A stretch of DNA of 64,000 nt, taken from NCBI GenBank assembly GCA_965231875.1, contig CBDDOM010000002.1, positions 4,690,487-4,754,486 of the forward strand, read 5' to 3'. This document shows positions 18,547 to 57,543 of this stretch, one piece after another. The notes under the pieces were generated by a model, which saw nothing but the letters and a program-made list of their open reading frames with translations, searched no databases and had not been told where the DNA came from. The position numbers and the translations under genes were made by a program. Each line of letters opens with the position of its first letter. Within the stretch, counting starts at the first letter, position 1. This stretch comes from Alphaproteobacteria bacterium (GTDB lineage: Bacteria; Pseudomonadota; Alphaproteobacteria; MPNO01).

Positions 18547-19635
18547 CTAGCGCAGCTTGAGGGTGGACAGGCCGGCGAGCGCGAGCACCGCCGCGATGAT
18601 CCAGAACCGGATGACGACCGTCGATTCCGCCCATCCCTTCTGTTCGAAATGGTGGTGCAGCGGCGCCATCCGAAAGATCCGGCGCCCGGTGAGCCTGAAC
18701 GAGACCACCTGGACGATGACCGACACCGCTTCGAGAACGAACAGTCCGCCAATGATGACGAGCACGAGCTCGTGCTTGGTGATCAGGCTGACCGCGGCGA
18801 GCGCGCCTCCGACCGAGAGCGCGCCGGTGTCGCCCATGAACACCATCGCCGGCGGCGCGTTGAACCACAGGAAACCGAGCCCCGCGCCGACCAGCGCACC
18901 GCAAAACACCGCGAGCTCGCCCGCGCCCCGCACGAAATGGATTTGCAGGTAGTTGGAAAAAACCGCATTGCCCACGAGGTAGGCAATCATCGCGAAACAC
19001 CCGGCCGCGATCAGCGCCGGCATGATCGCGAGCCCGTCCAGGCCGTCGGTGAGATTGACCGCGTTGGACGTTCCGATCAGCACCAGCACCGCCCAGGGCA
19101 GGAAGAACCAACCGAGCGGAACGAGCACTTCCTTGAGGAACGGCACGGTGAGCCCCATCGCGAGCGGCCCCGCCGTGGCCTCGGTCATCCAGTACGCCGC
19201 GACCGTTCCGACCGCGATCTGGGCGAGCAGCTTCATGCGCGCCGACATCCCGCCGCTCGATCGTCGGCTCACCTTCAGATAGTCGTCGACGAAGCCGATC
19301 ACGCCGAAGCAAAGGGTCACGAACAACGCGATCCACACATACTGGTTGGCGAGGTCGGCCCAGAGCAGAGTCGCGATCAGAATGGTGGCCAGAATCAGCA
19401 CGCCACCCATGGTCGGCGTGCCCTTCTTGGTCAGAAGATGCGACGGCGGTCCGTCCTCGCGGATGGGCTGGCCGTCGCCCTGTTGCAGTTTGAGCCAGCG
19501 GATGAGCGAAGGGCCGAGGATCAGCGACAGGGCCAGGGCGGTGACCGCGGCGCCTCCTGTCCTGAGCGTGATGTACCGGATCAGGTTCAGAACGCCGCCA
19601 TCGTCGGCGAAGGGGAGGAGCGCATTGAATAACAT
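18547..19635 (-). CDS. mraY: phospho-N-acetylmuramoyl-pentapeptide transferase MraY
   Basis: 363 aa after trimming. Integral membrane protein with MraY motifs ([18 protein letters not shown]). The track ORF (556 aa) is over-extended. Confidence 0.92.
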
Positions 19636-19649
19636 GCCGACGGAACCCC

Positions 19650-21077
19650 TCAGCTTCCCACGGCCGCGGCTGGTGCCGGGTGGGGGATGCCGGCATCCAT
19701 CAGTCGCGCGACGACCGCATCCATCCGGCTCGCGTTGGAGCCCTTGACCATCACCACATCGTCCGGCCGGACCAGCGCCACGGCGGTATCGGCCAGCGCC
19801 GCGCCTGTCTCCGCGGCGGCTCCCCGCATGCCGACGGGCAGCCGATCCAGCACCGCCCGCATGTCGCCGGCCGCGAATACGGTGTGGATGCCGCTCTCCA
19901 CCAGCGGGTCCGCGAGGCCCTCGTGGAACGCGGCGGCCTCGGGCCCGAGCTCGAACATGGGGCCCAGGATGGCGATCCTGCGACCCTCGCCGCGCGGCGA
20001 AATCCGGCCCAGCGTCTCGATCGCCGCGCGCATCGAGGCGGGATTCGCGTTGTAGCTCTCGTCGATCAACGTGAAAGTCCCGCCGGCGCAGGCGACGCTG
20101 TGAGGCTTGCCGCGCCCCGCCATCGGAGCGAGGGTTCGCAGGCTCCCGGCAGCCTCCTCGGCATCCGCCCCGAGCGCCTCGACGGCGGCAAGTACGGCGA
20201 GTGAGTTGAGCACCCAATGCCGACCGGGAAGCCCGATCCGGTAGTCGATCCTGCGGCCGAGGAGGTCGGCGGTCACGTCGCTCCCGTCCGCGTCCAGGGA
20301 AACCGCGCGGGCGGTCACGTCGCCATTGCAGAGTCCGAAGGAAACGATCCGGGTGTCGGGTCTGCGCACCGCCGACGCGCGCAACCGATCGAAGAACATG
20401 TTGTCCCGATTGAGCACGCAGGCCCCGCCCGGATCCACGCCCTCGAAAATTTCAGCCTTCGCGTCGGCGACAGCTTCCAGAGAGGAAAAGAAAGCGAGAT
20501 GGGCGGCCTCGACATTCGTAACGACCGCGACATGCGGGCGGATGAGGCGCGAGAGCGGCGAGATTTCGCCGGCATGGTTCATGCCGACCTCGAACACGCC
20601 GAACGCGGAGCCGGGAGGCATGCGCGCGAGCGAGAGGGGAACCCCCCAGAGATTGTTGTAGCTTGCCGCGCTCGCGGAGGTACCGCCTTGACCGGCGAGC
20701 GCGTGGCGCAGCGCTTCCTTGGTCCCGGTCTTGCCGACGCTGCCGGTGACGGCAACCACGCGGGCCTTGCCGCGGTCCCGCCCACGGCGACCCAGGGCGG
20801 TGAGCGCGGCAAGGGTGTCTTCGACAAGCAGCAGCGGCGCGTCCGTTCCGATGCCGTCGGGCCGACGGTGGACCGCGGCGGCGACGGACCCGGCGGCGAG
20901 GGCGTCGCCGACATAGTCATGGCCGTCCTTCTCGGGGCCCTCGATGGCAACGAACAAATCGCCGGGTGCGGCGGTCCGGCTGTCGATCGATACGCCGCCG
21001 GCCTCCCACGCGCCGGTTGCGCTGCCGCCGGTGACCGCCGCTGCTTCGGTGGAAGTCCAGAGAGGGGTCGCGCTCAC
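19650..21077 (-). CDS. murF: UDP-MurNAc-tripeptide--D-alanyl-D-alanine ligase MurF
   Basis: Mur ligase ([12 protein letters not shown]). The GTG start at 21075-21077 overlaps the murE stop (GTGA). Confidence 0.85.
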
Positions 21078-31821: not shown

Positions 31822-32205
<384 letters not shown>

Positions 32206-38069: not shown

Positions 38070-38807
38070 TCAGCGCAGGCCGCGCTGCTTCCTGATCGTG
38101 TCCCAGGCCGCGTTGATCGCCGCCATCCGCTCTGTCGCGATCTGGACGAAATCCTCCGGCATGCCCTGCGCGGTCAGGCGGTCGGGATGGTTCTCCCGGG
38201 TGAGCTTCAGCCACGCCGCGCGCACCGTCTCGTCGTCGGCATCGCGGTCGACGCCCAGCACGGCATAGGGATCGGACTTGCTGTCGCCCTCGTGGTTCGC
38301 CCGGATTCGCCGGTAAGTGGTCTCGTCGAAGCCGAAGATTCCGGCGACCCGCTCGAGATAGTCGAGCTCGGCCGGATGGAGCACGCCGTCCGCGTTGGCG
38401 ATATAGAACAGCGCGTCGAGCAGCTCCTCGAGCACTGCCGGGTTGGCCGCGAACATCGCAGCGACCTGGCGGGCATAGGGCTCGAAGCCGCGCGCGTCCT
38501 TGCGCGCCTGGTCGAACACGCGACCGACGTTCTTCATCTCCTCCGGGGGCACGTGGAAGATACGGCGGAAGGCCGCGATCTCGTCCCGCGTCACCTTGCC
38601 GTCGGCCTTGGCCATCTTGGCGCAGAGCGCGATCACCGCGATGGTGAAGGCGATCTCGCGGGTGGCGGCCCGTCCGTCCCCGGCACCCTGGGGGGACCGC
38701 ATCCGGTCGACGGCATGGCCCGCCACCGCGCCGAGCAGCGCGCCGATCGGCCCGCCGAGCGCGAACCCGGCGGCGCCGCCGATGATCTTTCCCCAGATGC
38801 CGGCCAT
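38070..38807 (-). CDS. djlA: DjlA-like co-chaperone (TerB-like domain plus C-terminal J domain)
   Basis: 245 aa. Gly-rich N-terminal transmembrane segment, a TerB-like middle region, and a C-terminal J domain with HPD (DPYAVLGV...LTRENHPDR). Confidence 0.6.
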   Translation of the reverse strand: MAGIWGKIIGGAAGFALGGPIGALLGAVAGHAVDRMRSPQGAGDGRAATREIAFTIAVIALCAKMAKADGKVTRDEIAAFRRIFHVPPEEMKNVGRVFDQARKDARGFEPYARQVAAMFAANPAVLEELLDALFYIANADGVLHPAELDYLERVAGIFGFDETTYRRIRANHEGDSKSDPYAVLGVDRDADDETVRAAWLKLTRENHPDRLTAQGMPEDFVQIATERMAAINAAWDTIRKQRGLR

Positions 38808-38925
38808 TGGGTGCTCCTCCGCGCGGGCAATCTAGCACCCGGCAGGCCGCGGCGGAATCGCATCGACCGGGATGGGATTGCGGGAATACCAATATTTGGT
38901 ATCGTCGGCGGAAAGGGGCTGTTCG

Positions 38926-39162
38926 ATGCCACGAAACACTTCGGTTTCTCTCGGCGACCACTTCGCCGGGTTCATCGACGAACGGATCGCGTCGGGACGG
39001 TACAACTCGGCCAGCGACGTGGTGCGGGCCGGGTTGCGGTTACTCGAAGAGCACGAGGCCAGTGTGGAGGCCCTGCGTGAGGCGCTGATCGAGGGCGAGC
39101 GATCGGGCCCCGCCGAACCGTTCGATTTCGACACGTTCATTGCGGGCAAGAAGTCCGGCTGA
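38926..39162 (+). CDS. parD: ParD-type (COG3609/CC2985-family) type II antitoxin, no cognate toxin downstream
   Basis: 78 aa, [42 protein letters not shown]..., a ribbon-helix-helix antitoxin pattern. SD GAAAGGGG lies upstream. It resembles the ParD of the intact pair at 57121..57387. A hairpin repeat follows it instead of a parE. Confidence 0.7.
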
Positions 39163-39191
39163 GGGAAATGTCGGGCGTATCCCCCTCCCCC

Positions 39192-39287
39192 GTCATGCTC
39201 GGCGAAGGCCGAGCATCCACGAGTTTTTCGCTGTGTAAGGGCTACGAAAAAACAAAACGCGGATGGTCGGCCTCCGCCGACCATGAC
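39192..39287. repeat. intergenic hairpin repeat, family 1 (copy A, imperfect arms)
   Basis: GTCATGCTCGGCGAAGGCCGAGCATCCACGAG-TTTTT...AAAAAACAAAA-CGCGGATGGTCGGCCTCCGCCGACCATGAC. Same family as the perfect 31-bp inverted repeat at 43486..43578. Confidence 0.6.
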
Positions 39288-39375
39288 GGGCTACAAGAGA
39301 GGTGCCCAATTCGGATTGACCTGCGGGATCGGGGCGCTTCCGCGCCGCGCGGGCCACGGCTATTCTGATCCGCGT

Positions 39376-40191
39376 ATGGAACGGAGCCAGGCCGCTTTGA
39401 GCAAGGCCATCGAACCCATCGCCGATCCGGCGGAGCTGCGCCGGCTGTGCCGCGAGGGGGCCTATGCCGGCCCGACCTCGGGCCACGCGGCGGGCTACGT
39501 CCAGGCGAATATGGTGATCCTGCCGGCCGCCGAGGCGGAGGATTTCGCCGCCTATTGCGAGCGCAACCCCCGCCCCTGCCCGGTGCTGGAGATACTGGAC
39601 CGGGGCGATCCGGTGCCGCGCCGGACGGCCCCCGGCGCCGACATCCGCACCGACCTGCCGCGCTACCGCGTATTCCGCAACGGCGAATGCGTCGCCGAGC
39701 CGACGGACATAACCGGCCTCTGGCGCGACGACCTGGTGACCTTCCTGCTCGGCTGCTCGTTCATCGCGGAAGAAGCGCTGCAAGGCGCGGGGCTCGAAAT
39801 TCGCCACATTGCCGAGACCGGCTATGTCTCGATGTACCGGACCGGCCGGCGGACCGTTCCGGTGGGTGCCTTCGCGGGGCCGATGGTGGTCTCGATGCGC
39901 CCGTTCACGCCGGACGACGCCGACCGCGCGGAAGAGATCACCGCGCGCTACCCGATGGCGCATGGCGGGCCGGTCCATCGCGGCGATCCGGCGGCGATCG
40001 GCATCCGCGACATCGCCGAGCCGGAATACGGCCGGCCGGTAACCGTCGACGACGACCAGATCCCGGTATTCTGGGCCTGCGGGGTGACGCCGCAGGAGGC
40101 GATCCTCAACGCCCGGCCCTCGCTCGCGATCACCCACATGCCGGGCTGCATGTTCGTCGGCGACCGCACCGCCGAATCGACCCGGGTCTGA
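39376..40191 (+). CDS. DUF1445 / D-glutamate cyclase-like (UPF0317 putative hydro-lyase) protein
   Basis: About 271 aa from the internal ATG at 39376; the track start at 39283 lies inside the repeat. The family assignment is made from memory of its conserved GYVQAN..ILP and NPRPCP-type blocks. Medium confidence. Confidence 0.5.
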   Translation: MERSQAALSKAIEPIADPAELRRLCREGAYAGPTSGHAAGYVQANMVILPAAEAEDFAAYCERNPRPCPVLEILDRGDPVPRRTAPGADIRTDLPRYRVFRNGECVAEPTDITGLWRDDLVTFLLGCSFIAEEALQGAGLEIRHIAETGYVSMYRTGRRTVPVGAFAGPMVVSMRPFTPDDADRAEEITARYPMAHGGPVHRGDPAAIGIRDIAEPEYGRPVTVDDDQIPVFWACGVTPQEAILNARPSLAITHMPGCMFVGDRTAESTRV

Positions 40192-40204
40192 CTGGAGAAC
40201 GCCC

Positions 40205-41608
40205 ATGACCGCGACCCTGACCGCCGACGGCCTCGCCGACCGGCTTCGCGGATTTCTCGGAGAACGGGTCTCGACCTCGGCGGTCGTGCGCGAGGGGCAC
40301 GGGCGCGACGAATCGCACCACCCGCCCTTCCCGCCCGACATCGTCGTGTTCCCCGAATCGGTCGACGAGACGGTCGCCGTCGTCGGGCTCTGCCGCGAGC
40401 ACGACACGCCGATGATCCCCTTCGGCGTCGGAACCTCGCTCGAAGGCCATGTCGCCGCGCTTGAGGGCGGGGTGTCGATCGACATGTCGCGGATGAACCG
40501 GGTGCTCGAAGTCAACGCCGCCGACCTCGACGTCCGGGTCGAGCCCGGCGTGACCCGCAAGCAGCTGAACGCGCATCTTCGCGACACCGGGCTGTTCTTC
40601 CCGATCGACCCGGGCGCGGACGCGACCCTCGGCGGCATGACCGCGACCCGGGCCTCGGGAACCAACGCGGTGCGCTACGGCACGATGCGCGACAACGTGC
40701 TGGGGCTCACCGTAGTGCTCGCCGACGGCCGGGTCATCCGGACCGGCACCCGGGCACGGAAATCCTCGGCGGGGTACGACCTCACGCGCCTCTTCGTCGG
40801 ATCGGAGGGGACGCTCGGCGTGATCGTCGAGGTGACGCTCCGGCTCTCCGGCATTCCGGAGGCGATCTCGGCCGCGGTCTGCGCCTTCCCGAGCGTCGAC
40901 GACGCCGTCGAGACTTCCATCGCGATCATCCAGTCGGGCGTGCCCGTCGCGCGGATTGAGCTCGCCGACGAGGTGCAGATCACCGCGATCAACCGCTGGT
41001 CGAGGACCGAGCTCCCCGAGCGCCCGGTGCTGTTCTTCGAGTTTCACGGAAGCGAGGCCTCGGTCGCCGAGCAGGCGGAGACCGCGCAGGCGATCGCCGC
41101 CGACAACGGCGGCACCGGGTTCGAATGGTCGACCCGGCAGGAGGACCGCAACGTCCTATGGCAGGCGCGTCATGACGCGCATTACGCCAATATGGGGCTC
41201 CGTCCCGGCCGCCGCGCCTGGCCCACCGATGTCTGCGTGCCGATCTCCAGGCTCGCGGAATGCATCGCCGAAACGCAGCGGGACATCGCCGCCACCGACC
41301 TGCTCGCCCCCATCGTGGGCCATGTCGGCGACGGGAATTTCCACATCGATTTCGTGATCGACCCCGACGACGAGGCCGAGCTCGCCGCCGCCACCGGGGT
41401 GAACGAACGCCTGATCGGGCGCGCGCTCGCGATGGGCGGCACCTGCACCGGCGAGCACGGCGTCGGTTACGGCAAGAAGAAATACCTCGCCGCCGAGCAC
41501 GGCGAGGGGGTCTCGGTGATGCGTGCGATCAAGCAGGCGCTCGATCCCGCCAACCTGATGAATCCGGGAAAGATCGTCGATCCGCCTCCGGCGGCCGCGG
41601 CGGAGTAA
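40205..41608 (+). CDS. FAD-linked oxidase, GlcD/D-lactate dehydrogenase (cytochrome) family
   Basis: 467 aa. FAD_binding_4 (PCMH) N-terminal domain (GVGTSLEGH, GSEGTLGV) and a C-terminal FAD-oxidase_C domain (TGEHGVG...K). Confidence 0.85.
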   Translation: MTATLTADGLADRLRGFLGERVSTSAVVREGHGRDESHHPPFPPDIVVFPESVDETVAVVGLCREHDTPMIPFGVGTSLEGHVAALEGGVSIDMSRMNRVLEVNAADLDVRVEPGVTRKQLNAHLRDTGLFFPIDPGADATLGGMTATRASGTNAVRYGTMRDNVLGLTVVLADGRVIRTGTRARKSSAGYDLTRLFVGSEGTLGVIVEVTLRLSGIPEAISAAVCAFPSVDDAVETSIAIIQSGVPVARIELADEVQITAINRWSRTELPERPVLFFEFHGSEASVAEQAETAQAIAADNGGTGFEWSTRQEDRNVLWQARHDAHYANMGLRPGRRAWPTDVCVPISRLAECIAETQRDIAATDLLAPIVGHVGDGNFHIDFVIDPDDEAELAAATGVNERLIGRALAMGGTCTGEHGVGYGKKKYLAAEHGEGVSVMRAIKQALDPANLMNPGKIVDPPPAAAAE

Positions 41609-41627
41609 GGCGCGCGATACGGCATCC

Positions 41628-41731
41628 GCCCTCCCCCGGCCCCTCCCGCAAGCGGGAGGGGAGAAGGCGGGGAGCGCTCGGCGGGCGAGCCTCCCTCTCC
41701 CCCGCGGGGAGAGGGTCGGGGTGAGGGGGCT
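41628..41731. repeat. GC-rich palindromic mosaic repeat, family 2 (copy 1)
   Basis: Contains nested hairpins CCTCCCGCAAGCGGGAGG and CTCTCCCCCGCGGGGAGAG. An inverted copy at about 88% identity lies at 46341..46445. It sits between the convergent genes FAD oxidase and DUF4169. Confidence 0.6.
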
Positions 41732-41791
41732 GAAACCGTCCCCTACGAACCGCGCGCCTCGGCGTCCCCCGAGCGCCTGCCCATACCCTTG

Positions 41792-41827
41792 GTCAAGCTA
41801 TCTATATAAGCCCCTGTCGAAGGGCGG
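41792..41827. repeat. short repeat module, family 4 (GTCAAGCTATCTATATAAGCCCCTGTCGAAGGGCGG)
   Basis: Near-identical copies at 43634..43669 (same orientation) and 43386..43414 (reverse complement). Confidence 0.55.
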
Positions 41828-41836
41828 AACCGGCCC

Positions 41837-42046
41837 TCAGCTCTGCTTGGGTCCGCCCTCGCGGTCGGTCTTGTCTTCGAGCAGCCTGGCGTCGAGGCGC
41901 AGCGCGTCCCGCTCCTTCTGTCGACGGGCGGCTTCCTTGTCCTGCTTGCCGCGCCCATGTCTGGCGCGGTTTTCCGCCGCTTCGTTCTTGCGGGCGAGCC
42001 GTGTCCGCTTCTTCCGGTACTGGTTGAGCTGGATCACGTCGCCCAT
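41837..42046 (-). CDS. small basic protein, DUF4169-like
   Basis: 69 aa from the internal ATG, MGDVIQLNQYRKKRTRLARKNEAAENRARHGRGKQ.... Lys/Arg-rich, and its N-terminus resembles the MxDVINL..RK.RE DUF4169 pattern. Family assignment made from memory. Confidence 0.4.
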   Translation of the reverse strand: MGDVIQLNQYRKKRTRLARKNEAAENRARHGRGKQDKEAARRQKERDALRLDARLLEDKTDREGGPKQS

Positions 42047-42154
42047 CGGATACCCCTCCACGCCGGGTGAGCCGGGGTTGCAGCGGCCTCACGAACCCTA
42101 GCACCCGCCCCGTGGCCGCGCCAACCGCGTAGGGAGAGTCCGGCCCGAAAACCG

Positions 42155-43237
42155 CTACTCCGCGGCCGACCTCAGCTCGGCGGCCGACATGCGGTGGAGC
42201 GCGCGGCGGGCGAGCGCCACCGCCTCGTCGTGGCGGCGGTAGTGCAGCCCGCGTCCGGGATCGCGCGAGATCGCCCGCTGCTGGGCCTCGATCGTCGCCT
42301 TGTCCTCCAGGAACGCCTCGGAGACGTCCTTGTAGAACCGCTCTCCCTCCGGCGAGTCGACGGCGCGGTTGCGGTTGGCGACCGACCAGAAATAGTGGCA
42401 GGTCGTCTCCGTCTCGGGCGTCGCGTGGTGGAACAGACGGAGCGAGAGCCCGCCCTCGCGGTTTCGGTCCTGCCTGGCGCCGCGTCCGACCGCATGCGCC
42501 CCGCCCCATTGCAGCACCGAGGCCGGCGCGACGTACTCGAACTCCGACCAGCGGTCGACCGGCCCCTCGAAGCCGCCGATGGCGACGAAGGACGGCGGCG
42601 GCGGCGAAGCCATCATCCAGCGGACGAACCTGGCGCCGTTCGCGGTAGCGGTCGTGTCCATCTCGGCGTCGACATGGGATTGCGGGAACCCGCCGATGGT
42701 CGAGCCGTGGACGTAGCCGAGATGAGTGAGGTCCATCAGGTTGTCCATCACGAACATGAAGTTCGCCTCGAAGCGGTAGCGGCCGAACCGGAACGGCCAC
42801 TCGGCGCCCGCGTCGTGGAACGGGAAGTCGACGATCCGGGACTCGTCCGCCAGCGCGGGATCGCCCATCCAGGCCCAGACGAAGTTCTGCCGTTCGACGG
42901 CGGGGAAGGACCGCACGCCGTAGAGGCCGCGATCCTCTTCTTCGCCCGGATTGCCGGTGCACGCGCCGTCCGCGCCGAAGACCATCCCGTGATAGCCGCA
43001 CTGCAGCCCGGCTTCCACCACGGTACCGAGGCTGAGCGGCGCGGCCCGGTGGCAGCACCTGTCCTCCAGGATGCCGACCCGCCCGGCGGCATCGCGGAAC
43101 AGCACCGCCTCCTCGCCCAGCAGCGTCCGCGCCAGCGGCTCGTCGCCGACCTCATGCCCCCAGGCCGCGATGTACCACGCATTGCGGACCATCGGCTCGA
43201 TCGGATTGTCGGACATGGGCGGCCCCGTCATCGTCAT
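42155..43237 (-). CDS. Rieske [2Fe-2S] non-heme-iron oxygenase alpha subunit (VanA/phthalate-dioxygenase-like class)
   Basis: 360 aa. Rieske motif CCHRAAPLS..(17)..CGYHG, and a mononuclear Fe site in the catalytic domain (HLGYVHG...). Its size matches single-subunit oxygenases that use a separate reductase. Confidence 0.85.
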   Translation of the reverse strand: MTMTGPPMSDNPIEPMVRNAWYIAAWGHEVGDEPLARTLLGEEAVLFRDAAGRVGILEDRCCHRAAPLSLGTVVEAGLQCGYHGMVFGADGACTGNPGEEEDRGLYGVRSFPAVERQNFVWAWMGDPALADESRIVDFPFHDAGAEWPFRFGRYRFEANFMFVMDNLMDLTHLGYVHGSTIGGFPQSHVDAEMDTTATANGARFVRWMMASPPPPSFVAIGGFEGPVDRWSEFEYVAPASVLQWGGAHAVGRGARQDRNREGGLSLRLFHHATPETETTCHYFWSVANRNRAVDSPEGERFYKDVSEAFLEDKATIEAQQRAISRDPGRGLHYRRHDEAVALARRALHRMSAAELRSAAE

Positions 43238-43290
43238 TCGCGTTCCCTCAAACCTATCAGCGCGAAGAGGTCCGATCCATCGCGACCGGT

Positions 43291-43393
43291 CCCTCGATAC
43301 GCCGCTTCGCGGCTACTCGGGATGAGGGAGAATTCTCGCTACTCCCACGGCAATCCCTCACCCTGAGTAGCGGCGAAGCCGCGTATCGAAGGG
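43291..43393. repeat. palindromic repeat, family 3 (copy 1)
   Basis: CCCTCGATACGCCGCTTCGCGGCTACTCGGGATGAGGGAG with a roughly 25-nt loop and an inverted arm. Second copy at 56719..56810. Confidence 0.6.
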
Positions 43394-43414
43394 GGCTTAT
43401 ATAGATAGTTTGAC
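43386..43414. repeat. family 4 module, reverse orientation
   Basis: CGAAGGGGGCTTATATAGATAGTTTGAC is the reverse complement of the family 4 core. Confidence 0.5.
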
Positions 43415-43485
43415 GAGCGGGAGGTCGACAGACGTTCCGGGAGGCGCCGGGGCATACCCCTTTCGCGCCAGACCGTTCCTCTGTC

Positions 43486-43578
43486 GTCATGGTCGGCGCA
43501 GGCCGACCATCCACGAGTTTTTGCGGCGCCGGAAACAAAAAAACAAATCGTGGATGGTCGGCCTGCGCCGACCATGAC
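43486..43578. repeat. hairpin repeat, family 1 (copy B, perfect 31-bp inverted repeat)
   Basis: GTCATGGTCGGCGCAGGCCGACCATCCACGA-[31-nt T/A-rich loop]-TCGTGGATGGTCGGCCTGCGCCGACCATGAC, with perfect arms. It lies in the P450/Rieske intergenic region. Confidence 0.7.
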
Positions 43579-43633
43579 GGAGGAGGCGGGACAAGTCCCG
43601 CGCCCGCCGGCACCGGGCGCCGGGCCGGTCACC

Positions 43634-43669
43634 GTCAAGCTATCTTTATAAGCCCCTATCGAAGGGCGG
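43634..43669. repeat. family 4 module (copy 2)
   Basis: GTCAAGCTATCTTTATAAGCCCCTATCGAAGGGCGG. Confidence 0.55.
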
Positions 43670-43881
43670 CGGGCCCCCCGCTCCCCCGCAACCGCCCCGC
43701 CTGTCACTCCGAAACACGTCCGGGGTGACATCGGGGTGGGCGGTCTCGTGGTCGATTCGACGAAAATTTGTCCTGTTACGATATTTTTAATTGACCCGGG
43801 ACACGTTTTGAGGTATATTTACCATAGTGGAGAAGTGGGGGCGCCGGAGATTTCGGCGTCCCTTTCCGTTGCCAAGCCTGA

Positions 43882-45207
43882 CTACGCTGGCGGCGTCTTC
43901 GCCGTGTCCCACTCGACCCTGAGCTGCTGCACGCCGCGGAAGGTGAGCGTCGGGATGTATTTCCAGTCCTGGCCCTCGACGAGTTGCATGTGGGGAAGGC
44001 GGCGGGTCAGCTCTTCCAGGATTATGCGCATCTCGAGCCGGGCGAGCGGCGCGCCCATGCAGAAATGCGCGCCGTTGCCGAAGGCGAGGTGGCGCTTGGC
44101 GCCGGAGCGGGCAATGTCGAACGTCCCGCCGTCTGGAAATGTTGCGTCGTCGCGGTTGCCGGAGCCGAGCAACAGCAGGATCTTCGCCCCGGCGGGGACC
44201 GGCACGCCGCCGATCTCCGCGTCCCGCGTCGCGATCCGGCGCCAGGCGAAGATCGAGGCGTCGTAGCGGAGGATTTCCTCCACCGCGCCCGGGATCAGGC
44301 CGGGGTCGTCGCACAGAAGCTGCCACTGCGCGCGGTCCGACAGCAGCGCCTTCAGCCCGTTGGCCGAGGCCTGGGTGGTGGTCTCGTGGCCGGCGAACTG
44401 CATCAGGAACATGACGTTGTAGAGGTAGTTCACCGTGAAGCGCGACGGGTCCTCGCGGTGCAGCCGCACCATGTCGCCGAGATAGTTGTCGCCGGGGTTC
44501 TCCAGCGCGGCGTCGACGAGTTCTTTCGTGAACGCCCAGTGCTCGCCCATGTCGCTCATCATCGCGACCTGCTCGGCCTCGCCGGGCTTGCCCCAGTTGA
44601 CCACCGCCCGGGCCGAGCCGAGGCGTTTGACGAACACCGCGTCGTCGTCCCGCGCGCCGAGGAAGATGAAAATCGCGAGCGCCGGGACCTCGTAGAGCAT
44701 CCGCGACACCAGCTCGGCCTCGCCGTCGCCGGCGAAGCGGTCGATGTAGCGGGTGACGATGGCCCGGATGCGCGGCTCGATCTCGTTGACTCGCCGGGGG
44801 GTGAAGGCATCGCCGAAGATCTTGCGGTGCTTGAGATGCGTCTCCGGGTCCTCGTCGACCAGCGAGGGCTCGATGGCAATGTCGAGGCTGTCGCGCACCT
44901 TCGCCGCGGCCGGGCAGAGCGGCGTCACCGGATGGCGGGCGAGCGCGGCGGAAAACGTCTTCGGGTCGCGGAAGACGGCGACGATGTCGTCATGGCGCGC
45001 GACCGCCCAGTAGCCGGTCTCGGGGCTGTAGAACACCGGCTCTTCCCCGCGCGCGCGCTCGAAAAACGGGTAGGGGTCGGCGAGATAGGCCTCGGAGAAC
45101 GGCCGGAAGCCGGCGCCGAGCGCGCTCGCCGGGCACGCTCGCGGAGCGGCGGCGTCGGTGGCTTCCGGCTCCGACTGGAACATGCCGAGCTGCCCGATCG
45201 TAGACAT
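43882..45207 (-). CDS. cytochrome P450 monooxygenase
   Basis: Heme-binding loop FGNGAHFCMGAPLARLE, I-helix AGHETT, and a K-helix ExxR. About 441 aa from the ATG at 45207 (alternative ATG at 45282). The track ORF begins further upstream. Confidence 0.85.
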   Translation of the reverse strand: MSTIGQLGMFQSEPEATDAAAPRACPASALGAGFRPFSEAYLADPYPFFERARGEEPVFYSPETGYWAVARHDDIVAVFRDPKTFSAALARHPVTPLCPAAAKVRDSLDIAIEPSLVDEDPETHLKHRKIFGDAFTPRRVNEIEPRIRAIVTRYIDRFAGDGEAELVSRMLYEVPALAIFIFLGARDDDAVFVKRLGSARAVVNWGKPGEAEQVAMMSDMGEHWAFTKELVDAALENPGDNYLGDMVRLHREDPSRFTVNYLYNVMFLMQFAGHETTTQASANGLKALLSDRAQWQLLCDDPGLIPGAVEEILRYDASIFAWRRIATRDAEIGGVPVPAGAKILLLLGSGNRDDATFPDGGTFDIARSGAKRHLAFGNGAHFCMGAPLARLEMRIILEELTRRLPHMQLVEGQDWKYIPTLTFRGVQQLRVEWDTAKTPPA

Positions 45208-45365
45208 TTCCCTGTCCCCTTCCGCGCCGCCGCCATCTTGGCGGATCGCCGCCGCGGCCGCCACCGGGGGCTCGATAGACATTTGCACCGCCGGATCGAC
45301 CCGCGTCGGCACGATCCGGCATCGACGCGCCGATAAATGCCGAACCCAACCGAAGGAGAAACGAC

Positions 45366-46304
45366 ATGCAGACAGCGAATGCCTACAGGAATGACGACAC
45401 GCCGGATGCGGCCGGCGCCGGCTGCATCGACCCGAAGGCGCTCAAGGACGCCCGCGAGCGCCGGGGCCTGACCCAGTCGCAGCTCGCCGATGAAGTCGGA
45501 TGCGGCAAGGACACCGTGAGCCGGTGGGAACGGGGCCATTCCCACCGGCTGCAACCGCGTCACCGCGAGTCGCTGTGCGCCGCGCTCGGGGTCCGCTGGC
45601 ATGCTCTGGCGGGGTCCGGTTCCGGCGGGCCGAACGACATTTCCCGCGACACCTGGGTCGGATCGGCGGCCGGAGAAGACATCCGGACGGCATTCCGTCT
45701 TGCGGCCGAACGCTACGACATCGGCGTGCACGACGTGATGAAGACCGCGCCGCTGCTTTTCGTCATCGCCGCCGAGCGGAGCCTGATCGAGCGCAGGCGG
45801 CAGCTCGAAGCGGCCCGCGCGGAGGTCGACGGGACCGCGCGGGCGCTGGCGGACAACGCGCCCTGTCTCGGCCGGGCGGTCGAGGAAGCGGTCCGAAAGG
45901 AGGAAAAATCGATCGCCGAAAACGACATTTTCGGACGCCTCGTCCGGTCCGAAGGGGATGAGGAAGACGACGAAGGGCCGTTCGCGCGCTTCCTCCGCGG
46001 CCTCGCGAGCGACCTTCCGGAGAGCGCGACGCGCGGCTTCCTTCCGGCCCCGGAAAACGCTGTCGGGTCCCCCGCGACCGCGGAGGACGCAAGCCGCGAC
46101 ACCGCGGAAGCCTGGGACGGGAATAGCGTTCTGCGGCGGCTTTTTCCGCATTTCCGCGCGGGCCGGATCGCCATTGGGGAGTATCTCAGGGCGAAACGCG
46201 AGCGCGACGAAGCCGGCTTCCGGCAATGGGTGACCGACGCGCTCGCCCGGGCCGAAGAGCAAGCGCGCAACGCCTCGCGCGCCGGCAAGGAATCGGGGGA
46301 GTAG
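45366..46304 (+). CDS. XRE-family helix-turn-helix transcriptional regulator with a long uncharacterised C-terminal domain
   Basis: 312 aa. HTH_3 region (LTQSQLADEVGCGKDTVSRWERG). Strong SD AAGGAG. Divergent from the P450, with about 160 bp between them. Confidence 0.7.
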   Translation: MQTANAYRNDDTPDAAGAGCIDPKALKDARERRGLTQSQLADEVGCGKDTVSRWERGHSHRLQPRHRESLCAALGVRWHALAGSGSGGPNDISRDTWVGSAAGEDIRTAFRLAAERYDIGVHDVMKTAPLLFVIAAERSLIERRRQLEAARAEVDGTARALADNAPCLGRAVEEAVRKEEKSIAENDIFGRLVRSEGDEEDDEGPFARFLRGLASDLPESATRGFLPAPENAVGSPATAEDASRDTAEAWDGNSVLRRLFPHFRAGRIAIGEYLRAKRERDEAGFRQWVTDALARAEEQARNASRAGKESGE

Positions 46305-46340
46305 GGAATCCATACCGGATCCCGGGCCGGATCGCTTCGG

Positions 46341-46445
46341 CCCCCCTCACCCCGACCCTCTCCCCGCCGGGGAGAGGGTGCTCGCTCGCCGGGCGCTCCC
46401 TGCCGTCTCCCCTCCCGCTTGCGGGAGGGGTTGGGGGAGGGCGGG
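46341..46445. repeat. family 2 mosaic repeat (copy 2, inverted relative to 41628..41731)
   Basis: Reverse complement of copy 1 at about 88% identity. It sits between the convergent genes XRE and MBL hydrolase. Confidence 0.6.
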
Positions 46446-46451
46446 CGTCCC

Positions 46452-47354
46452 TCAGGGCAGGCTGTAGCGGGACTCGGCGGTCGGGGGGCCGTCGCACGCT
46501 ATGCGGCCGGTCTCGACCATGTGCTCCAGATGGGCGAGCGTCGACCTTCCGGCGGCCCAGTGCATGCGCTCCGGCAGATGCGCGTACATGCGCCCGACCA
46601 TCGCGGGCAGCGTCGCGAGCCCGTCGTCGAGGCAGCGCAGGATCTGGCTCTCGCGCATCCGCCGGTGGCCGAGATAGGCGCGGACGAACGGCGCGGGCCG
46701 GTCGATCGGCGGGCCGTGGCCGGGGAGGTAGAGCGCGTCCTTGCGGGCCATGCAGATGTCAAGCGAGCGCAGGTAATCGCCCATATTGCCGTCGGGCGGC
46801 GAAACGATGGTGGTGTTCCACCCCATCACATGGTCGCCTGAGAACAATATCCCGCCCTCGGCCAGCGCGAAGCAGTGGTGGTTCGACATGTGGCCCGGCG
46901 TGAACACCGGCGTCAGCGTCCAGCCGGGCCCCGCGATGGCGTCTCCGTCGGCGAGGTGGATGTCGGGCTCGAAGTCGTGGTCGGTGGCCTCCAGCGGGGG
47001 CTCGCCGTCGCCCGGCGGGGCCGGCAGGGCGCCGACGATGGGGGCCCCGACCGCGCGGGCGAAGGCGCGCGCCGCCGGGGAATGGTCGATATGGGTATGG
47101 GTGACGATGACATGGCTGACCGTCTCGCCCGCCACGGCGCGCGTCAGCGCCTCGACATGGTCCGCGTCGTCGGGGCCGGGATCGATCACCGCGACCTCGC
47201 CCTCGCCCTCGCCCACCACGTAGGAGTTGGTGCCGTGGAAGGTGAAGGGGCTCGGGTTGTTGCAGACGACGCGCCGGACGCCGGGCGCCACGGTTTCGGC
47301 CCGCCCGTATTCGAACGCCATCTGTTTGCGGAACGGAATGTCGGCTTGGGCCAT
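46452..47354 (-). CDS. MBL-fold metallo-hydrolase
   Basis: HxHxDH motif THTHIDH plus downstream His/Asp ligands. About 300 aa from the ATG at 47354. The track ORF (390 aa) is over-extended. Confidence 0.8.
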   Translation of the reverse strand: MAQADIPFRKQMAFEYGRAETVAPGVRRVVCNNPSPFTFHGTNSYVVGEGEGEVAVIDPGPDDADHVEALTRAVAGETVSHVIVTHTHIDHSPAARAFARAVGAPIVGALPAPPGDGEPPLEATDHDFEPDIHLADGDAIAGPGWTLTPVFTPGHMSNHHCFALAEGGILFSGDHVMGWNTTIVSPPDGNMGDYLRSLDICMARKDALYLPGHGPPIDRPAPFVRAYLGHRRMRESQILRCLDDGLATLPAMVGRMYAHLPERMHWAAGRSTLAHLEHMVETGRIACDGPPTAESRYSLP

Positions 47355-47374
47355 CGGGGGCTTCCGGGGAATGT

Positions 47375-48481
47375 CTACTGGATGACGATGCTGGGCGCGG
47401 GCTTCACCGCCCCGCCGGAAACCTTCGCCCAGACCGCGTCGGCGATCGCCCGGTAGGCGTCGGCGTGCATGCCCTGGGGGTCGGTGGCGACGATCGGCCG
47501 GCCGGCGTCGGCGCCCTCGCGGATCGCCATGTCGAGCGGCAGCTCGCCGAGGAAGTCGACCTCCATCGCTTCGGCCGCGCGCCGCGCGCCGCCATGGGTG
47601 AAGACGTCCGACCGACCGCCGCAATGGGGGCAGATGAAATAGCTCATGTTCTCGATCACGCCGAGCACCGGTATGTCGACCTTGCGGAACATGTTGAGCC
47701 CCTTGCGCGCGTCGATCAGGGCCAGGTCCTGCGGCGTCGACACGATCACCGCGCCGGCCAGCGGCACGCGCTGCGCCATGGTGAGCTGCACGTCGCCGGT
47801 GCCGGGCGGCATGTCGACGACGAGAATGTCGAGCTCGCCCCAGGCGACGTCGCGCATCAGCTGCTCCAACGCGCCCATCACCATCGGGCCGCGCCAGATG
47901 GTCGGCGAATCGGCCGGGATCAGGAAGCCGATCGACATCGCCTTCAGCCCCCAGGCGAGCATGGGGTCGAGCACCTTGCCGTCGGGCGAGGTCGGGCGGT
48001 CGGTAATGCCGAGCATCAGCGGCAGGGACGGCCCGTAGATGTCGGCATCGAGAATGCCGACCGAATGCCCGGCGGCGGACAGCGAAAGCGCGAGATTGAC
48101 CGCGGTGGTCGACTTGCCCACCCCGCCCTTGCCGGAGGCGACGGCGACGATCCGCTTCACGCTCGGCATGAGCGGCTGCTGGGGCGCCTGCCGCTCGGCG
48201 GGACGCGGGGCCTCGGGCGGCGGCGCCTGTTCGCTGTGCGCGGTGAGCACGGCGGTCACCGACAGGACGCCCGGCACGGCGGCGACGGCGCGTTCGGCCT
48301 CCTTCCTGAGCGGCTCCAGGGCGGGCCCGCGCTCGGGCGCCACCTCGATCGAGAAGCCGACATTGCCCTGCTTGAGAACCAGGCCCGAGATCATCCCGAG
48401 CGACACGATATCCTCGCCCCGGCCGGGGTCGCGGACCGATTTCAGCGCCTCGAGGATGGCGGTCTCGTTCAACTGCGGCAT
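47375..48481 (-). CDS. apbC: iron-sulfur cluster carrier ATPase ApbC/Mrp
   Basis: 368 aa. N-terminal DUF59-like region, deviant Walker A SGKGGVGKST, and a CPHC motif. Confidence 0.9.
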   Translation of the reverse strand: MPQLNETAILEALKSVRDPGRGEDIVSLGMISGLVLKQGNVGFSIEVAPERGPALEPLRKEAERAVAAVPGVLSVTAVLTAHSEQAPPPEAPRPAERQAPQQPLMPSVKRIVAVASGKGGVGKSTTAVNLALSLSAAGHSVGILDADIYGPSLPLMLGITDRPTSPDGKVLDPMLAWGLKAMSIGFLIPADSPTIWRGPMVMGALEQLMRDVAWGELDILVVDMPPGTGDVQLTMAQRVPLAGAVIVSTPQDLALIDARKGLNMFRKVDIPVLGVIENMSYFICPHCGGRSDVFTHGGARRAAEAMEVDFLGELPLDMAIREGADAGRPIVATDPQGMHADAYRAIADAVWAKVSGGAVKPAPSIVIQ

Positions 48482-56694: not shown

Positions 56695-56718
56695 GGCAAT
56701 ATGCCTTACGGTGCGCCG

Positions 56719-56810
56719 CCCTTCGATACGCGGCTGCGCCGCTACTCAGGGTGAGGGAGCCGGACGTTAGTCCCTCATCCCGAGTAGGCGCGCCAGCGCC
56801 GTATCGAGGG
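56719..56810. repeat. palindromic repeat, family 3 (copy 2)
   Basis: CCCTTCGATACGCGGCTGCGCCGCTACTCAGGGTGAGGGAG...CTCCCTCATCCCGAGTAGGCGCGCCAGCGCCGTATCGAGGG. It ends 5 nt before the parE stop, at the convergent ilvN/parE junction. Confidence 0.6.
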
Positions 56811-56815
56811 ACGCG

Positions 56816-57124
56816 CTATAGATCCTCCCGGAGCCGGCCGATCTGGTGCATGCGCTCGTGCAGCACGGTGACGATGCCGATGTCTCCGTTGCCCAGCCGT
56901 TTCCAGTAGACGAAATGCCTCTCGTACCGGAAGACGTAGCCGTCAACCTCGAACTGGGCCGGAATCGGACGCGAGACTACCTCTCCCGTTGCGATCCCCT
57001 CGAAGGCCTCGAACAGGCCGGTGACGTACGCATCCGCCCGCGCTTCTCCCCAACGCTCCAGCGAGTACCGGTAGATCTCGTCAATACGGAGAGCGGCCGC
57101 TTCCTGTACGCGGACCGACGTCAT
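56816..57124 (-). CDS. parE: ParE/RelE-family type II toxin
   Basis: 103 aa. ParE-like hydrophobic/aromatic pattern (YRYSLERWGEARADAY...YVFRYERHFVYW). ATGA overlap with the upstream antitoxin. Confidence 0.75.
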   Translation of the reverse strand: MTSVRVQEAAALRIDEIYRYSLERWGEARADAYVTGLFEAFEGIATGEVVSRPIPAQFEVDGYVFRYERHFVYWKRLGNGDIGIVTVLHERMHQIGRLREDL

Positions 57125-57387
57125 GGGTCGGCGCGCGTCGCGTTCCTCGCAATGACGTCCGATGCCGATAGCGGACGATACGAGGCGTCCGGCGCAGCGA
57201 AGGCGCGTTCCAGCTCGGCCTTCAGGCGCTCGAACGCCTCGGTCTCCGAACGCTCCTTGTCGCGACGGATCAGATCGCGAATGTACTCGCTGACGTTTTC
57301 GTAGGAGCCGTTCTCGCCGACATTGGCCGACACGAAATCGCTGAGCGCGCCGCTGAGGCGAACCGTCATCGTCGTGGTGCGGCGCAT
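57121..57387 (-). CDS. parD: ParD-type (COG3609) type II antitoxin
   Basis: 88 aa. RHH-like N-terminus (MTVRLSGALSDFVSANVGENGSYENVSEYIRDLIRRDKE), paralogous to the antitoxin at 38926. Confidence 0.7.
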   Translation of the reverse strand: MRRTTTMTVRLSGALSDFVSANVGENGSYENVSEYIRDLIRRDKERSETEAFERLKAELERAFAAPDASYRPLSASDVIARNATRADP

Positions 57388-57543
57388 CGGCCGGTCTCCC
57401 GCAAACAATGCGTACAATATAAACAATATCGAATACAGCAGGCAAGCAGCGGAGCGGCGGCGCTCCGGTTGACCGAAGGCTTGCGGCGCTGGTACAGGTG
57501 GCGGAGAAAACGAGCGCCACGGGGGGATGCGAAGCGTCCCTGA

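Follow-up and report, generated by a model that had tools for sequence, protein, structure and literature searches.

The window, a stretch of 64,000 nucleotides (contig CBDDOM010000002.1), belongs to a Defluviicoccus-like alphaproteobacterium and includes genes for ParD, a D-Glu cyclase, an FAD oxidase, DUF4169, a Rieske protein, a P450, an XRE protein and an MBL protein, for which the labels of a first-pass annotation proved correct by Pfam. The same annotation had placed four families of palindromic repeats among these genes. We found all four at those positions, far above chance, with two to four core matches per family in the window and none expected in shuffles. When the whole window was compared by BLAST with 119 non-orthologous loci, precisely these segments gave matches, plus a single element that had been overlooked (43784–43873). 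Four of the five repeat-bearing spacers lie inside 7.2 kb (P about 0.012, crude permutation). An Rfam search of the repeats gave nothing at the gathering score, and below threshold only microRNA-hairpin noise. The repeats had been likened to RIME/BIME elements, and they are indeed dispersed REP/BIME-like palindromic intergenic repeats with copies beyond the locus: rather than being unique to this site, they recur at many unrelated loci of related genomes, with 84–100% identity over 90–280 nt across loci and genomes.

The members of family 1 are paired REPs of the known CGTC-tagged superfamily (Di Nocera, De Gregorio and Rocco 2013, BMC Genomics 14:522, PMC3733652). A unit opens with a CGTC head, continues with a covarying 9-bp stem that begins A-T/T-A and encloses a GNAG loop, and ends in a CCA tail with CG behind it; in the dimer, both heads point outward and a conserved T-rich spacer separates the units. 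The 30-nt units match GTCATGsTCGGCGnAGGCCGAsCATCCrCG four times in the window, at 39192–39221(+), 39258–39287(-), 43486–43515(+) and 43549–43578(-) (none expected, 100 shuffles), and form two inverted dimers. The first (39184–39290), an HH heterodimer with a T-rich inner spacer, begins 22 nt after the ParD stop codon. Its left unit, 39191–39221(+), has the stem CTCGGC/GCCGAG and its right unit, 39258–39288(-), the stem GTCGGC/GCCGAC; the whole folds at -63 to -69 kcal/mol (z about -8), and in the left unit a compensatory change preserves the local hairpin but disrupts the long inter-unit one. The second (43478–43586), an HH homodimer of units 43485–43515(+) and 43549–43579(-), lies in the centre of a MITE and folds at -81 to -85 kcal/mol (z -12 to -14). 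The 31-bp arms first assigned to this family do not hold, as the long-hairpin arms measure 40–45 nt (83–89% complementary) and about 31 nt is the size of a single unit; the real unit is a 30–31-nt hairpin present as an inverted dimer.

Base pairing in family 1 is conserved across copies. Both unconstrained stem positions pair in 132 of 150 exact units, and among 52 distinct units 98.1% of cells pair, with double changes at five pairs, a result equalled in 0 of 500 shuffles; U-G pairs are tolerated. A degenerate pattern matched at least 119 stretches in species-representative genomes, and nearly all of the matches listed were in alphaproteobacterial MAGs. On OZ220750.1, the closest complete chromosome, at least seven of these loci are scattered between 0.78 and 4.73 Mb. 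About 41% of copies lie between convergent genes, against a background of 18%, and divergent (promoter) spacers are avoided, being nearly empty.

Family 2 is a separate element of 105–130 bp in which an outer inverted repeat encloses two invariant GC hairpins, much as the earlier description of a GC-rich nested palindrome of about 105 bp had it. Copy a (41626–41729(+)) begins 17 nt after the FAD-oxidase stop codon; its outer repeat, CCCTCCCCC...GGGGTGAGGG, surrounds two different 10-bp GC hairpins, CCCCTCCCGC-AA-GCGGGAGGGG and CCCTCTCCCC-CGC-GGGGAGAGGG. Copy b (46342–46444(-)), 91% identical to it over 104 nt, lies between the convergent XRE and MBL genes. Because the hairpins are invariant, covariation is uninformative on their structure, and the fold z-score is only -2 to -4. 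The family is abundant in the closest complete genome and the clade, where it sits within tens of bases of stop codons, and at least ten further copies occur among the sampled loci of the clade.

In family 3, two imperfect, REP-like palindromes tagged with GTAG form a dimer, their GTAG motifs turned inward. The Rieske start codon is 52 nt downstream of copy a (43289–43391), a TT heterodimer with two arms of some 40 nt that folds at -70 kcal/mol (z about -9). Insertion of the MITE has displaced the final 5 bp of this copy (GGCGG) to 43665–43669. Near 56.7 kb the annotated second copy was confirmed as a full palindrome, an intact TT heterodimer at 56717–56813 flanked by the gene for the acetolactate-synthase small subunit and one for a ParE-like protein. 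Small stems follow GTAG in the arms and show covariation of six types, and six further dimers were found among the sampled loci of the clade.

Family 4 had been described as an independent 36-bp module, but it resolves into a 23-bp MITE terminal repeat, an 8-bp target duplication and 5 bp of family-3 end. Its 23-nt core, GGGGCTTATATAGATAGCTTGAC, occurs at 41792–41814(-), 43392–43414(+) and 43634–43656(-), with none expected by chance, and the last two are the terminal inverted repeats of a 265-bp MITE (43392–43656). The inner arms of this MITE are unrelated to each other (93 and 77 nt including the terminal repeat), and its central cargo is the second family-1 dimer. It is flanked by direct copies of the 8-bp duplication TATCGAAG at 43384–43391 and 43657–43664, the latter followed by the displaced family-3 end. 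Deleting the MITE and one duplicate gives CCGCCCTTCGATACGCGG, which is exactly the intact family-3 end at 56717–56734. Thus the repeats at 43.3–43.7 kb are real, but what had been read as a mosaic of modules in different orders is a nested insertion and not free module combination. The third family-4 copy is a MITE remnant (41730–41827(-)): its terminal repeat has no partner end, about 62 nt of MITE-interior-like sequence runs inward from it to family-2 copy a, and its flank (41815–41827) is the family-3-end-like TGTCGAAGGGCGG.

Related MITEs show that this target was not struck only once. Complete copies of 239–287 bp are present at L003, L059 (two), L087, L011, L108 and L128, with a further match at L124 (97% identity over 202 nt, different flank), and about ten MITE ends or copies occur among the sampled loci of the clade. 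The target duplications are CTTCGATA at L003 and L011, AAAAATTT at the second L059 copy (L059b), AAAACAAA at L087 and TATCGAAG/CATCGAAG at L108. L059b and L087, on separate contigs of the same genome, are 287 bp long and nearly identical, and at L108, a non-orthologous locus, the MITE occupies the same family-3 position in the opposite orientation. The MITE prefers CTTCGATA at the end of family-3 elements, a target struck independently in at least two genomes besides the window.

Compared between relatives, the stretch is variable in gene content, yet about half of its genes are conserved. The view that its genes are accessory held for Rieske, ParD and the repeat-bearing spacers, which vary, but not for the D-Glu cyclase, FAD oxidase, DUF4169, P450, XRE and MBL genes, which are syntenic in relatives at 80–90% nucleotide identity; in relatives the same junctions are occupied by other genes. 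Presence of the repeats differs as well. L001 (ApbC 93% identical) is without every repeat element, including family-3b, and has a different spacer at the site of family-2b, although its orthologous spacers are too diverged for clean empty sites of families 2 and 3. L002 (ApbC 91%) has both family-2 copies (19587–19691 for a, 12033–12133 for b) and family-3b (2056–2164) at orthologous sites, with no family 1 and no MITE; its DUF4169/family-2 spacer lacks the MITE-remnant segment of about 100 nt. L003 (ApbC 95%) carries family 3 and a MITE with a different REP subtype.

Most copies of families 1 and 2 are 6–50 nt away from a stop codon, and both families are over-represented between convergent genes. 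A family-1 unit is a GC hairpin, then ACG, then a T-rich run (T at +6/+7 in about 130 of 150 units), with U-G pairs allowed in the stem, and in the dimer the T-runs face inward, so that either transcription direction meets a hairpin and then T's. Together with the retention of family-2 and family-3b copies, with invariant hairpins, at orthologous sites of L002, these features would suit elements that are mainly selected transcript-end signals and not mobile, family 1 acting as two-way terminators or mRNA-stabilising hairpins and family 2 as a convergent-gene terminator. We consider this rather unlikely. Single family-1 units show no orientation preference, either in same-direction spacers (21 in the sense of the upstream gene, 16 opposite) or in convergent ones (15 versus 12); a simple terminator scan called none of the elements; L001 is without all of them at the same gene junctions; and in-place selection does not explain recurrence at unrelated loci or the MITE target duplications. 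A transcript-end role does not compete with mobility and can be secondary to it; the elements may serve as transcript-end hairpins behind genes.

It is considerably less probable that the repeats are recombination sites bounding exchangeable gene cassettes, integron- or hot-spot-like, a reading that would account for gene content differing between relatives right at the repeat-bearing junctions. Synteny with L001, L002 and L003 does break at or beside the repeat-bearing spacers (39.3, 41.6–41.8, 42.1–43.7 and 46.3–46.45 kb), which are clustered (P about 0.012), and two inverted family-2 copies bracket 4.6 kb. However, integrase and recombinase genes are missing from the stretch and its flanks, gene orientations are mixed, the same families occupy ordinary spacers throughout OZ220750.1, and no repeat marks the left end of the Rieske insertion/deletion (42115/42116). 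Homologous recombination among the scattered copies may be an occasional side effect. Chance palindromes of a GC-rich genome, which would fit the G+C content of 65–72% and the strong folding of GC-rich family-2 shuffles that keeps that family's z-score low, were rejected as having almost no probability, since the shuffles held no match to any of the four cores and long copies of 84–100% identity exist at other loci and genomes.

The stretch is thus very probably a variable piece of chromosome in which small, non-coding, structured dispersed repeats of known kind have piled up in 3'-side spacers. The inventory comprises two described REP kinds, a separate hairpin repeat, and a MITE bearing one of the REP kinds and sitting in the end of the other. 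The repeats themselves are ordinary; the neat part is the history of nested insertion. In that history the MITE landed in family-3a within the window, making the 8-bp target duplication, and a second copy near 41.8 kb was truncated later. The MITE may be mobilised in trans by a DDE-type transposase encoded elsewhere; no full-length element with MITE ends was found, and plasmids were without a match. It is not the general vehicle of family-1 spread, because 40 of 45 dimers are without MITE arms, and CGTC units probably spread by a route other than MITE carriage alone. No target duplication was seen around families 1, 2 or 3. For the GTAG-type units the mover could be a RAYT-type tyrosine transposase, as it is in other bacteria; no transposase was seen, and a search with E. 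coli RayT over the window and 925 kb of loci gave no homologue. Elements presumably persist behind genes because insertions there are tolerated.

CGTC-tagged REPs include Rickettsia RPE-4/RPE-6 and Neisseria dRS3 repeats, and their four families have either 8-bp stems and loops of 4 nt or 9-bp stems and loops of 5 nt (PMC3733652). Family 1 shares with them the terminal CGTC/TGTC, a stem starting A-T then T-A, a 4-nt loop, an unpaired CCA tail and a mostly dimeric form with CGTC ends outside and a conserved spacer, as well as an alphaproteobacterial location between convergent or same-direction genes with no adjacent transposase gene seen. Unlike the four families it joins a 9-bp stem to a 4-nt loop; its hairpin is lengthened past the tail by three pairs (CGT with ACG), a few of its dimers (the minority) are enclosed in a MITE that has terminal inverted repeats, and its host clade, Defluviicoccus-like Rhodospirillales, lies outside the survey of PMC3733652.

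GTAG-tagged repeats include the REPs/BIMEs of E. coli and the REPINs of Pseudomonas, moved by RAYT transposases (PMC3733652, PMC5581495). Family 3 resembles them in having GTAG beside a short GC stem-loop whose stem covaries between copies, and in forming an inverted two-arm dimer of about 100 bp, foldable as one long hairpin, with systematically different arms (a heterodimer). It differs in its inward GTAG motifs (TT type), in the last G of GTAG being already paired, and in long conserved arm extensions (CCCTCAYCCYGA inner, TATCGARGG outer). The comparison draws on eight dimers and on a RAYT search of the window and loci.

PMC3733652 reports that mobile elements insert into REPs in Pseudomonas, Neisseria and Sinorhizobium, and its section 7 notes REP dimers within longer palindromes in Halothiobacillus neapolitanus and Anabaena variabilis; like the latter, the window MITE has a REP dimer in its centre. 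With known MITEs, such as the Neisseria Correia elements, this MITE and its relatives have in common a length of 240–290 bp, 23-bp terminal inverted repeats, no coding capacity, locus-specific 8-bp direct repeats, several subtypes and near-identical copies at different sites; they depart from known MITEs in their mosaic inner arms (at least four arm types) and their preferred target, the end of another repeat family. The ends (GGGGCTTAT...) and 8-bp duplication may resemble those of the IS1595 family. IS1397 is an example of an insertion sequence that targets REPs/BIMEs. Like such sequences, the MITE repeatedly enters REP-type palindromes at one defined position (three or more independent loci, both orientations), but here the inserter is a MITE carrying another REP type, and it goes into the palindrome's outer end, not the loop. 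By description, the locus is also like the Sinorhizobium RIMEs (Rhizobium-specific intergenic mosaic elements), palindromic repeat combinations in alphaproteobacterial spacers, but here the mosaic is explained by nested insertion and truncation.

The first-pass annotation had described four repeat families in the window, and pattern searches, a repeat finder, shuffled sequences and BLAST all agree that they are real. Searching the 64-kb window at up to three mismatches returned four family-1 units, two family-2 cores, three family-4 cores and two family-3 arms of the type searched for, with which the repeat finder agreed; dinucleotide-preserving shuffles gave an expectation of zero matches for any of the four family patterns. 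BLAST comparison of the window with 119 non-orthologous loci matched exactly the repeat segments together with one further element at 43784–43873, which the earlier inventory had overlooked. Four of the five repeat-bearing spacers fall inside 7.2 kb (P ~0.012, crude permutation). Window G+C is 65–72%, and the ApbC homologues (best 95% identity; a 90% match named Defluviicoccus sp.) point to a Defluviicoccus-like member of the Rhodospirillales as host. Three fetched loci are syntenic with the window: L001 (ApbC 93% identity), L002 (91%, within the complete 4.79-Mb chromosome OZ220750.1) and L003 (95%, a 7.6-kb contig). For 38800–46600, Rfam gave nothing relevant at gathering or E-value thresholds, and the sub-threshold matches were just to eukaryotic microRNA precursors (23–34 bits against thresholds of 70–99). 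The sole gathering-score pass was a full-length match (290 bits) to bacterial class A RNase P RNA at 31823–32200 (−). A literature search by repeat sequence strings recovered unrelated primer matches alone.

The family-1 unit reads CGTC-ATGGTCGGC-GNAG-GCCGACCAT-CCA-CG followed by a T-rich run, with ATGGTCGGC and GCCGACCAT forming a 9-bp stem, in which the A-U and U-A pairs are invariant, around a GNAG loop. The two elements in the window, a (39184–39290) and b (43478–43586), each consist of two inverted units whose CGTC ends point outward. All four window units start with CGTC; among 52 distinct 31-mers the counts were CGTC 39, TGTC 12 and AGTC 1, where GTC was preset in the search patterns, so that the first base alone was free, and that base is able to pair with the 3' end. 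The free base after the CC of the tail, itself preset by the search pattern, is A in 143 of 150 units. In most of the 48 head-outward dimers the unit starts are 50–70 nt apart; units are rarely arranged in any other way, and the spacer ends ACGAGTTTTT and AAAAACAAAACGT recur from locus to locus.

The hairpin of the unit covaries. Both free stem positions are Watson–Crick paired in 132 of 150 exact units, with five covarying stem types, and many more complementary stem types appeared when the stem was left wholly free in the search. In the set of 52 distinct units, pairing holds in 98.1% of cells and both sides have changed in five pairs, a result equalled by none of 500 shuffles. One unit of element a carries a compensatory change (CTCGGC/GCCGAG) that spares its own hairpin and introduces mismatches into the long inter-unit hairpin, so the unit hairpin is the conserved structure.

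Dispersal beyond this locus was shown. A degenerate family-1 pattern, with two stem positions and the loop free, matched at least 119 stretches in species-representative genomes, almost all of them alphaproteobacterial MAGs, and at least seven loci are spread along OZ220750.1; density in the window is two dimers in 64 kb. Hosts among the matches listed are Defluviicoccus, other Rhodospirillales, Dongiaceae, Azospirillum, Acetobacteraceae, Xanthobacteraceae and Bradyrhizobium. In the fetched loci, convergent spacers hold ~41% of the copies that could be classified, compared with a background of 18%, and divergent spacers are almost devoid of single units: promoter-side spacers are avoided. The terminator-like shape of the unit (hairpin, ACG, T-run) is suggestive, with no sign of selection for that shape. 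A terminator role was tested by the orientation of single units relative to the upstream gene, which showed no bias (21 versus 16; 15 versus 12), and a simple terminator scan called no repeat unit.

Family 3, represented by copies a (43289–43391) and b (56717–56813), has arms with the layout CCCTCAYCCYGA-GTAG-stem-loop-stem-TATCGARGG. In 17 of 19 arms GAGTAG is followed by a stem of 5–8 bp and a loop of 3–5 nt (the remaining two have GGGCAG and GAGCAG), the last G of GTAG serving as the first stem base, and the small stem covaries, with six types between copies. All eight complete dimers have GTAG inside (TT) and combine two constant arm types, with fold z-scores of −6 to −9. Compared with the GTAG-tagged REP superfamily, for which we required a terminal GTAG beside a stem of 5–13 bp with a loop of 2–20 nt and inverted dimers folding as a long hairpin, family 3 fits as a putative new member in the form of a TT heterodimer. 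Two copies occur in the 64-kb window and two in ~77 kb of OZ220750.1, the closest genome, to be read against the tens to hundreds per genome taken as the mark of GTAG REPs. Copy b has an ortholog in L002 and none in L001, and further copies lie at the unrelated loci L011, L042, L108 and L129. RAYT is a single-copy gene; with RayT of E. coli as query, neither tblastn nor phmmer gave a hit below E = 1 across the window and a further 925 kb of loci. A probable toxin–antitoxin pair at ~56816–57530 (−) adjoins copy b; this segment aligns at 87% to L001 1–707, in which the calls are a ParE_toxin (PF05016) gene with a small ORF upstream of it.

Family 4, originally listed as a module in its own right, loses that status: in a metagenome scan and a mismatch search its 23-nt core always formed the outer ends of ~240–290-bp elements with a central CGTC-REP dimer. 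The inverted 23-bp ends GGGGCTTATAWAGATARYTTGAC bound 239–287 bp in eight complete copies, and the 8-bp direct repeats flanking them vary from locus to locus: TATCGAAG in the window (43384–43391 and 43657–43664), CTTCGATA at L003 and L011, AAAAATTT at L059b, AAAACAAA at L087 and TATCGAAG / CATCGAAG at L108. The exceptions are L059a, which has no matching flanks, and an 87-bp mini-element at L125 239–325, made of two MITE ends and a 41-nt centre, whose flanks are inverted (CTTTCGACA / TGTCGAAAG). One genome carries near-identical 287-bp copies, L059b and L087, on two of its contigs, and the copy at L124 is 97% identical to that of the window over 202 nt with a different flank. Given the inverted ends, the 8-bp duplications and the copies at other sites, 43392–43656 is one MITE, with family-4 copies b (43392–43414) and c (43634–43656) as its ends and family-1 element b as its cargo.

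Removing this MITE and one duplicate from the window leaves CCGCCCTTCGATACGCGG, identical to the intact end of family-3 copy b. L011 and L108, two non-orthologous loci, also have this 8-bp site at the family-3 end occupied, the MITE of L108 running the other way, and the orthologous site in L003 holds a MITE of another subtype (dimer stem CCCGGA/TCCGGG). Because the site is occupied at several loci, the MITE has a target preference for it, and family 3 is indicated to have been there first. Family-4 copy a (41792–41814) is a lone end, accompanied by the family-3-end flank and by ~62 nt resembling the MITE interior; its ~100-nt segment is absent from the orthologous L002 spacer, so it is a truncated MITE. 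A second CGTC-REP subtype (GTCATGCCCGGACTTGTTCCGGGCATCCACG, 5-nt loop) is central in other MITE copies with the same ends (L003 5848–6086; L059 2261–2498; L075 4837–4932), and a remnant of it, GGGACAAGTCCCG, lies at 43589–43601, just right of the family-1 dimer of the window MITE. An AT-rich metagenome contig (L126 880–1110; JGI12627J18819_10000283) has GC-rich palindromic clusters (CCCCGGGGCTGG...CCAGCCCCGGGG) and one 23-nt MITE-end match; it looks unrelated to the alphaproteobacterial elements, and its MITE-end match may have arisen by chance or belong to a GC-cluster element.

The TIR-bounded MITE might be a vehicle that copies CGTC REP dimers round alphaproteobacterial genomes, 'solo' dimers then being decayed MITEs or products of a second route. 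If so, its homing to GTAG-type dimer ends would couple the spread of both REP superfamilies. We consider this very improbable. MITE arms are found on just 5 of 45 family-1-type dimers with readable flanks, which makes the MITE a minority carrier, and the 40 dimers without arms rule it out as the general one. No transposase turned up in the sequences sampled. A full-length autonomous element with these ends and a transposase gene was not found in the loci, 72,556 plasmids, viral contigs or six metagenome matches, a small search space, which lowers certainty about the source of the MITE and leaves its anatomy unaffected. Nor did the family-3-plus-MITE segment have a BLAST match among the same plasmids, and the viral contig scan contained no MITE end. 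The ends may resemble those of the IS1595 family.

Like the MITE, family 2 (copy a, 41626–41729 (+); copy b, 46342–46444 (−)) is a new family of ordinary type. Across 12 aligned copies the outer inverted repeat and two 10-bp GC hairpins are invariant and the linker is variable. Four OZ220750.1 copies (L007 2286–2417; L037 290–422 and 5932–6061; L064 2798–2929) have a 24-nt nested hairpin (CCCCGGACTGCGATCCGGGG plus CAAG) within the loop of the first hairpin, a shared feature that defines a putative subfamily. L002 holds orthologs of both window copies, at ~86% identity, similar to the neighbouring genes, and L001 has unrelated spacers at these junctions; for families 2 and 3 the L001 spacers have diverged too far to offer clean empty sites. 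Copies lie 6–40 nt from stop codons, between convergent genes in 7 of 11 cases and divergent genes in none, and those examined had no tag, terminal repeat or target duplication.

The fifth repeated element, at 43784–43873 (+), has an AT-rich stretch followed by a site that looks like a strong promoter (TTGACC, 17 nt, TATATT), and no other was called in the region. The hairpin GGGGGCGCCGGAGATTTCGGCGTCCC and then TTTCC follow ~15 nt further on, ending 12 nt before the stop codon of the P450 gene on the other strand; a transcript of ~45 nt could result. L001, L002 and L003 have orthologs downstream of P450, and L037 (OZ220750.1 near 784 kb) has two paralogs, one split by a family-2 insertion. The element had no Rfam match.

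Pfam upheld the first-pass gene labels: ParD, D-Glu cyclase (DUF1445), FAD oxidase, DUF4169, XRE, MBL and ApbC, as well as TerB/DnaJ, VanA-like Rieske oxygenase and P450. The accompanying description of an accessory stretch stands as far as variability goes, but D-Glu cyclase, FAD oxidase, DUF4169, P450, XRE and MBL are kept at 80–90% nucleotide identity in relatives, and the stretch as a whole varies around a conserved backbone and is not a purely accessory island. Synteny with L001–L003 breaks at or beside repeat-bearing spacers, and repeats differ in presence between relatives: L003 has the Rieske gene together with family 3 and the MITE, L001 lacks this segment, and L002 retains a fragment of it. 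L001 also carries two copies of the MBL gene separated by a Fic-domain gene, and in L002 five other genes separate P450 from DUF4169. An integron-like cassette reading was set aside, there being no recombinase and a mixed gene orientation. The MBL ORF at 46452–47624 (−; 390 aa) overlaps the apbC 3' end by 250 nt; since the protein called in relatives has 298 aa, the true start probably lies ~90 codons downstream. The ParD antitoxin gene (38872–39162) is followed by no toxin gene, and family-1 element a fills the spot, within 39184–39447; in L001 the D-Glu cyclase gene has a ParE-like gene (20651–20857) immediately upstream, synteny with the window beginning only at 39334. Element a may mark a place where a toxin gene was lost or replaced.

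As to mechanism, the MITE would be moved in trans by a DDE transposase encoded elsewhere, and GTAG-type units by a RAYT-type transposase, by analogy with described systems (PMC5581495, PMC3733652). The GTAG-type dimer would have inserted first, then the MITE with its CGTC-type dimer, with truncation last; hairpins may be tolerated, and perhaps used, at transcript ends. Nested, target-specific insertion is a tidy detail, and the case at 43.3–43.7 kb offers a clean, datable example. Repeated, orientation-independent MITE hits on one 8-bp repeat-end site mean that 'mosaic' spacers can arise without a special assembly mechanism. For annotation, several spurious ORFs and odd palindromes in Defluviicoccus-like genomes are explained away, and the consensus sequences could be used for masking or strain typing in wastewater metagenomes.

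Taken together, the findings are well explained by known kinds of element and do not describe a new kind of system; they add one more clade to the CGTC and GTAG REP superfamilies. The CGTC-tagged REPs of Di Nocera and colleagues have a CGTC head, a stem starting A-T/T-A, a 4–5-nt loop and a CCA tail; they form mostly head-outward dimers with conserved spacers, are mainly alphaproteobacterial and sit between convergent and same-direction genes, with 'apparently no dedicated transposase' (PMC3733652). For comparison we required an unpaired terminal CGTC (TGTC/CCTC tolerated), an unpaired 3-nt tail fitting CCA, and predominantly HH dimers with a conserved spacer of 20–100 bp. Family 1 shares the head, stem, CCA tail, HH dimers, conserved spacer and location bias, and on this match in anatomy we assign it to the CGTC-tagged superfamily as a predicted new member.
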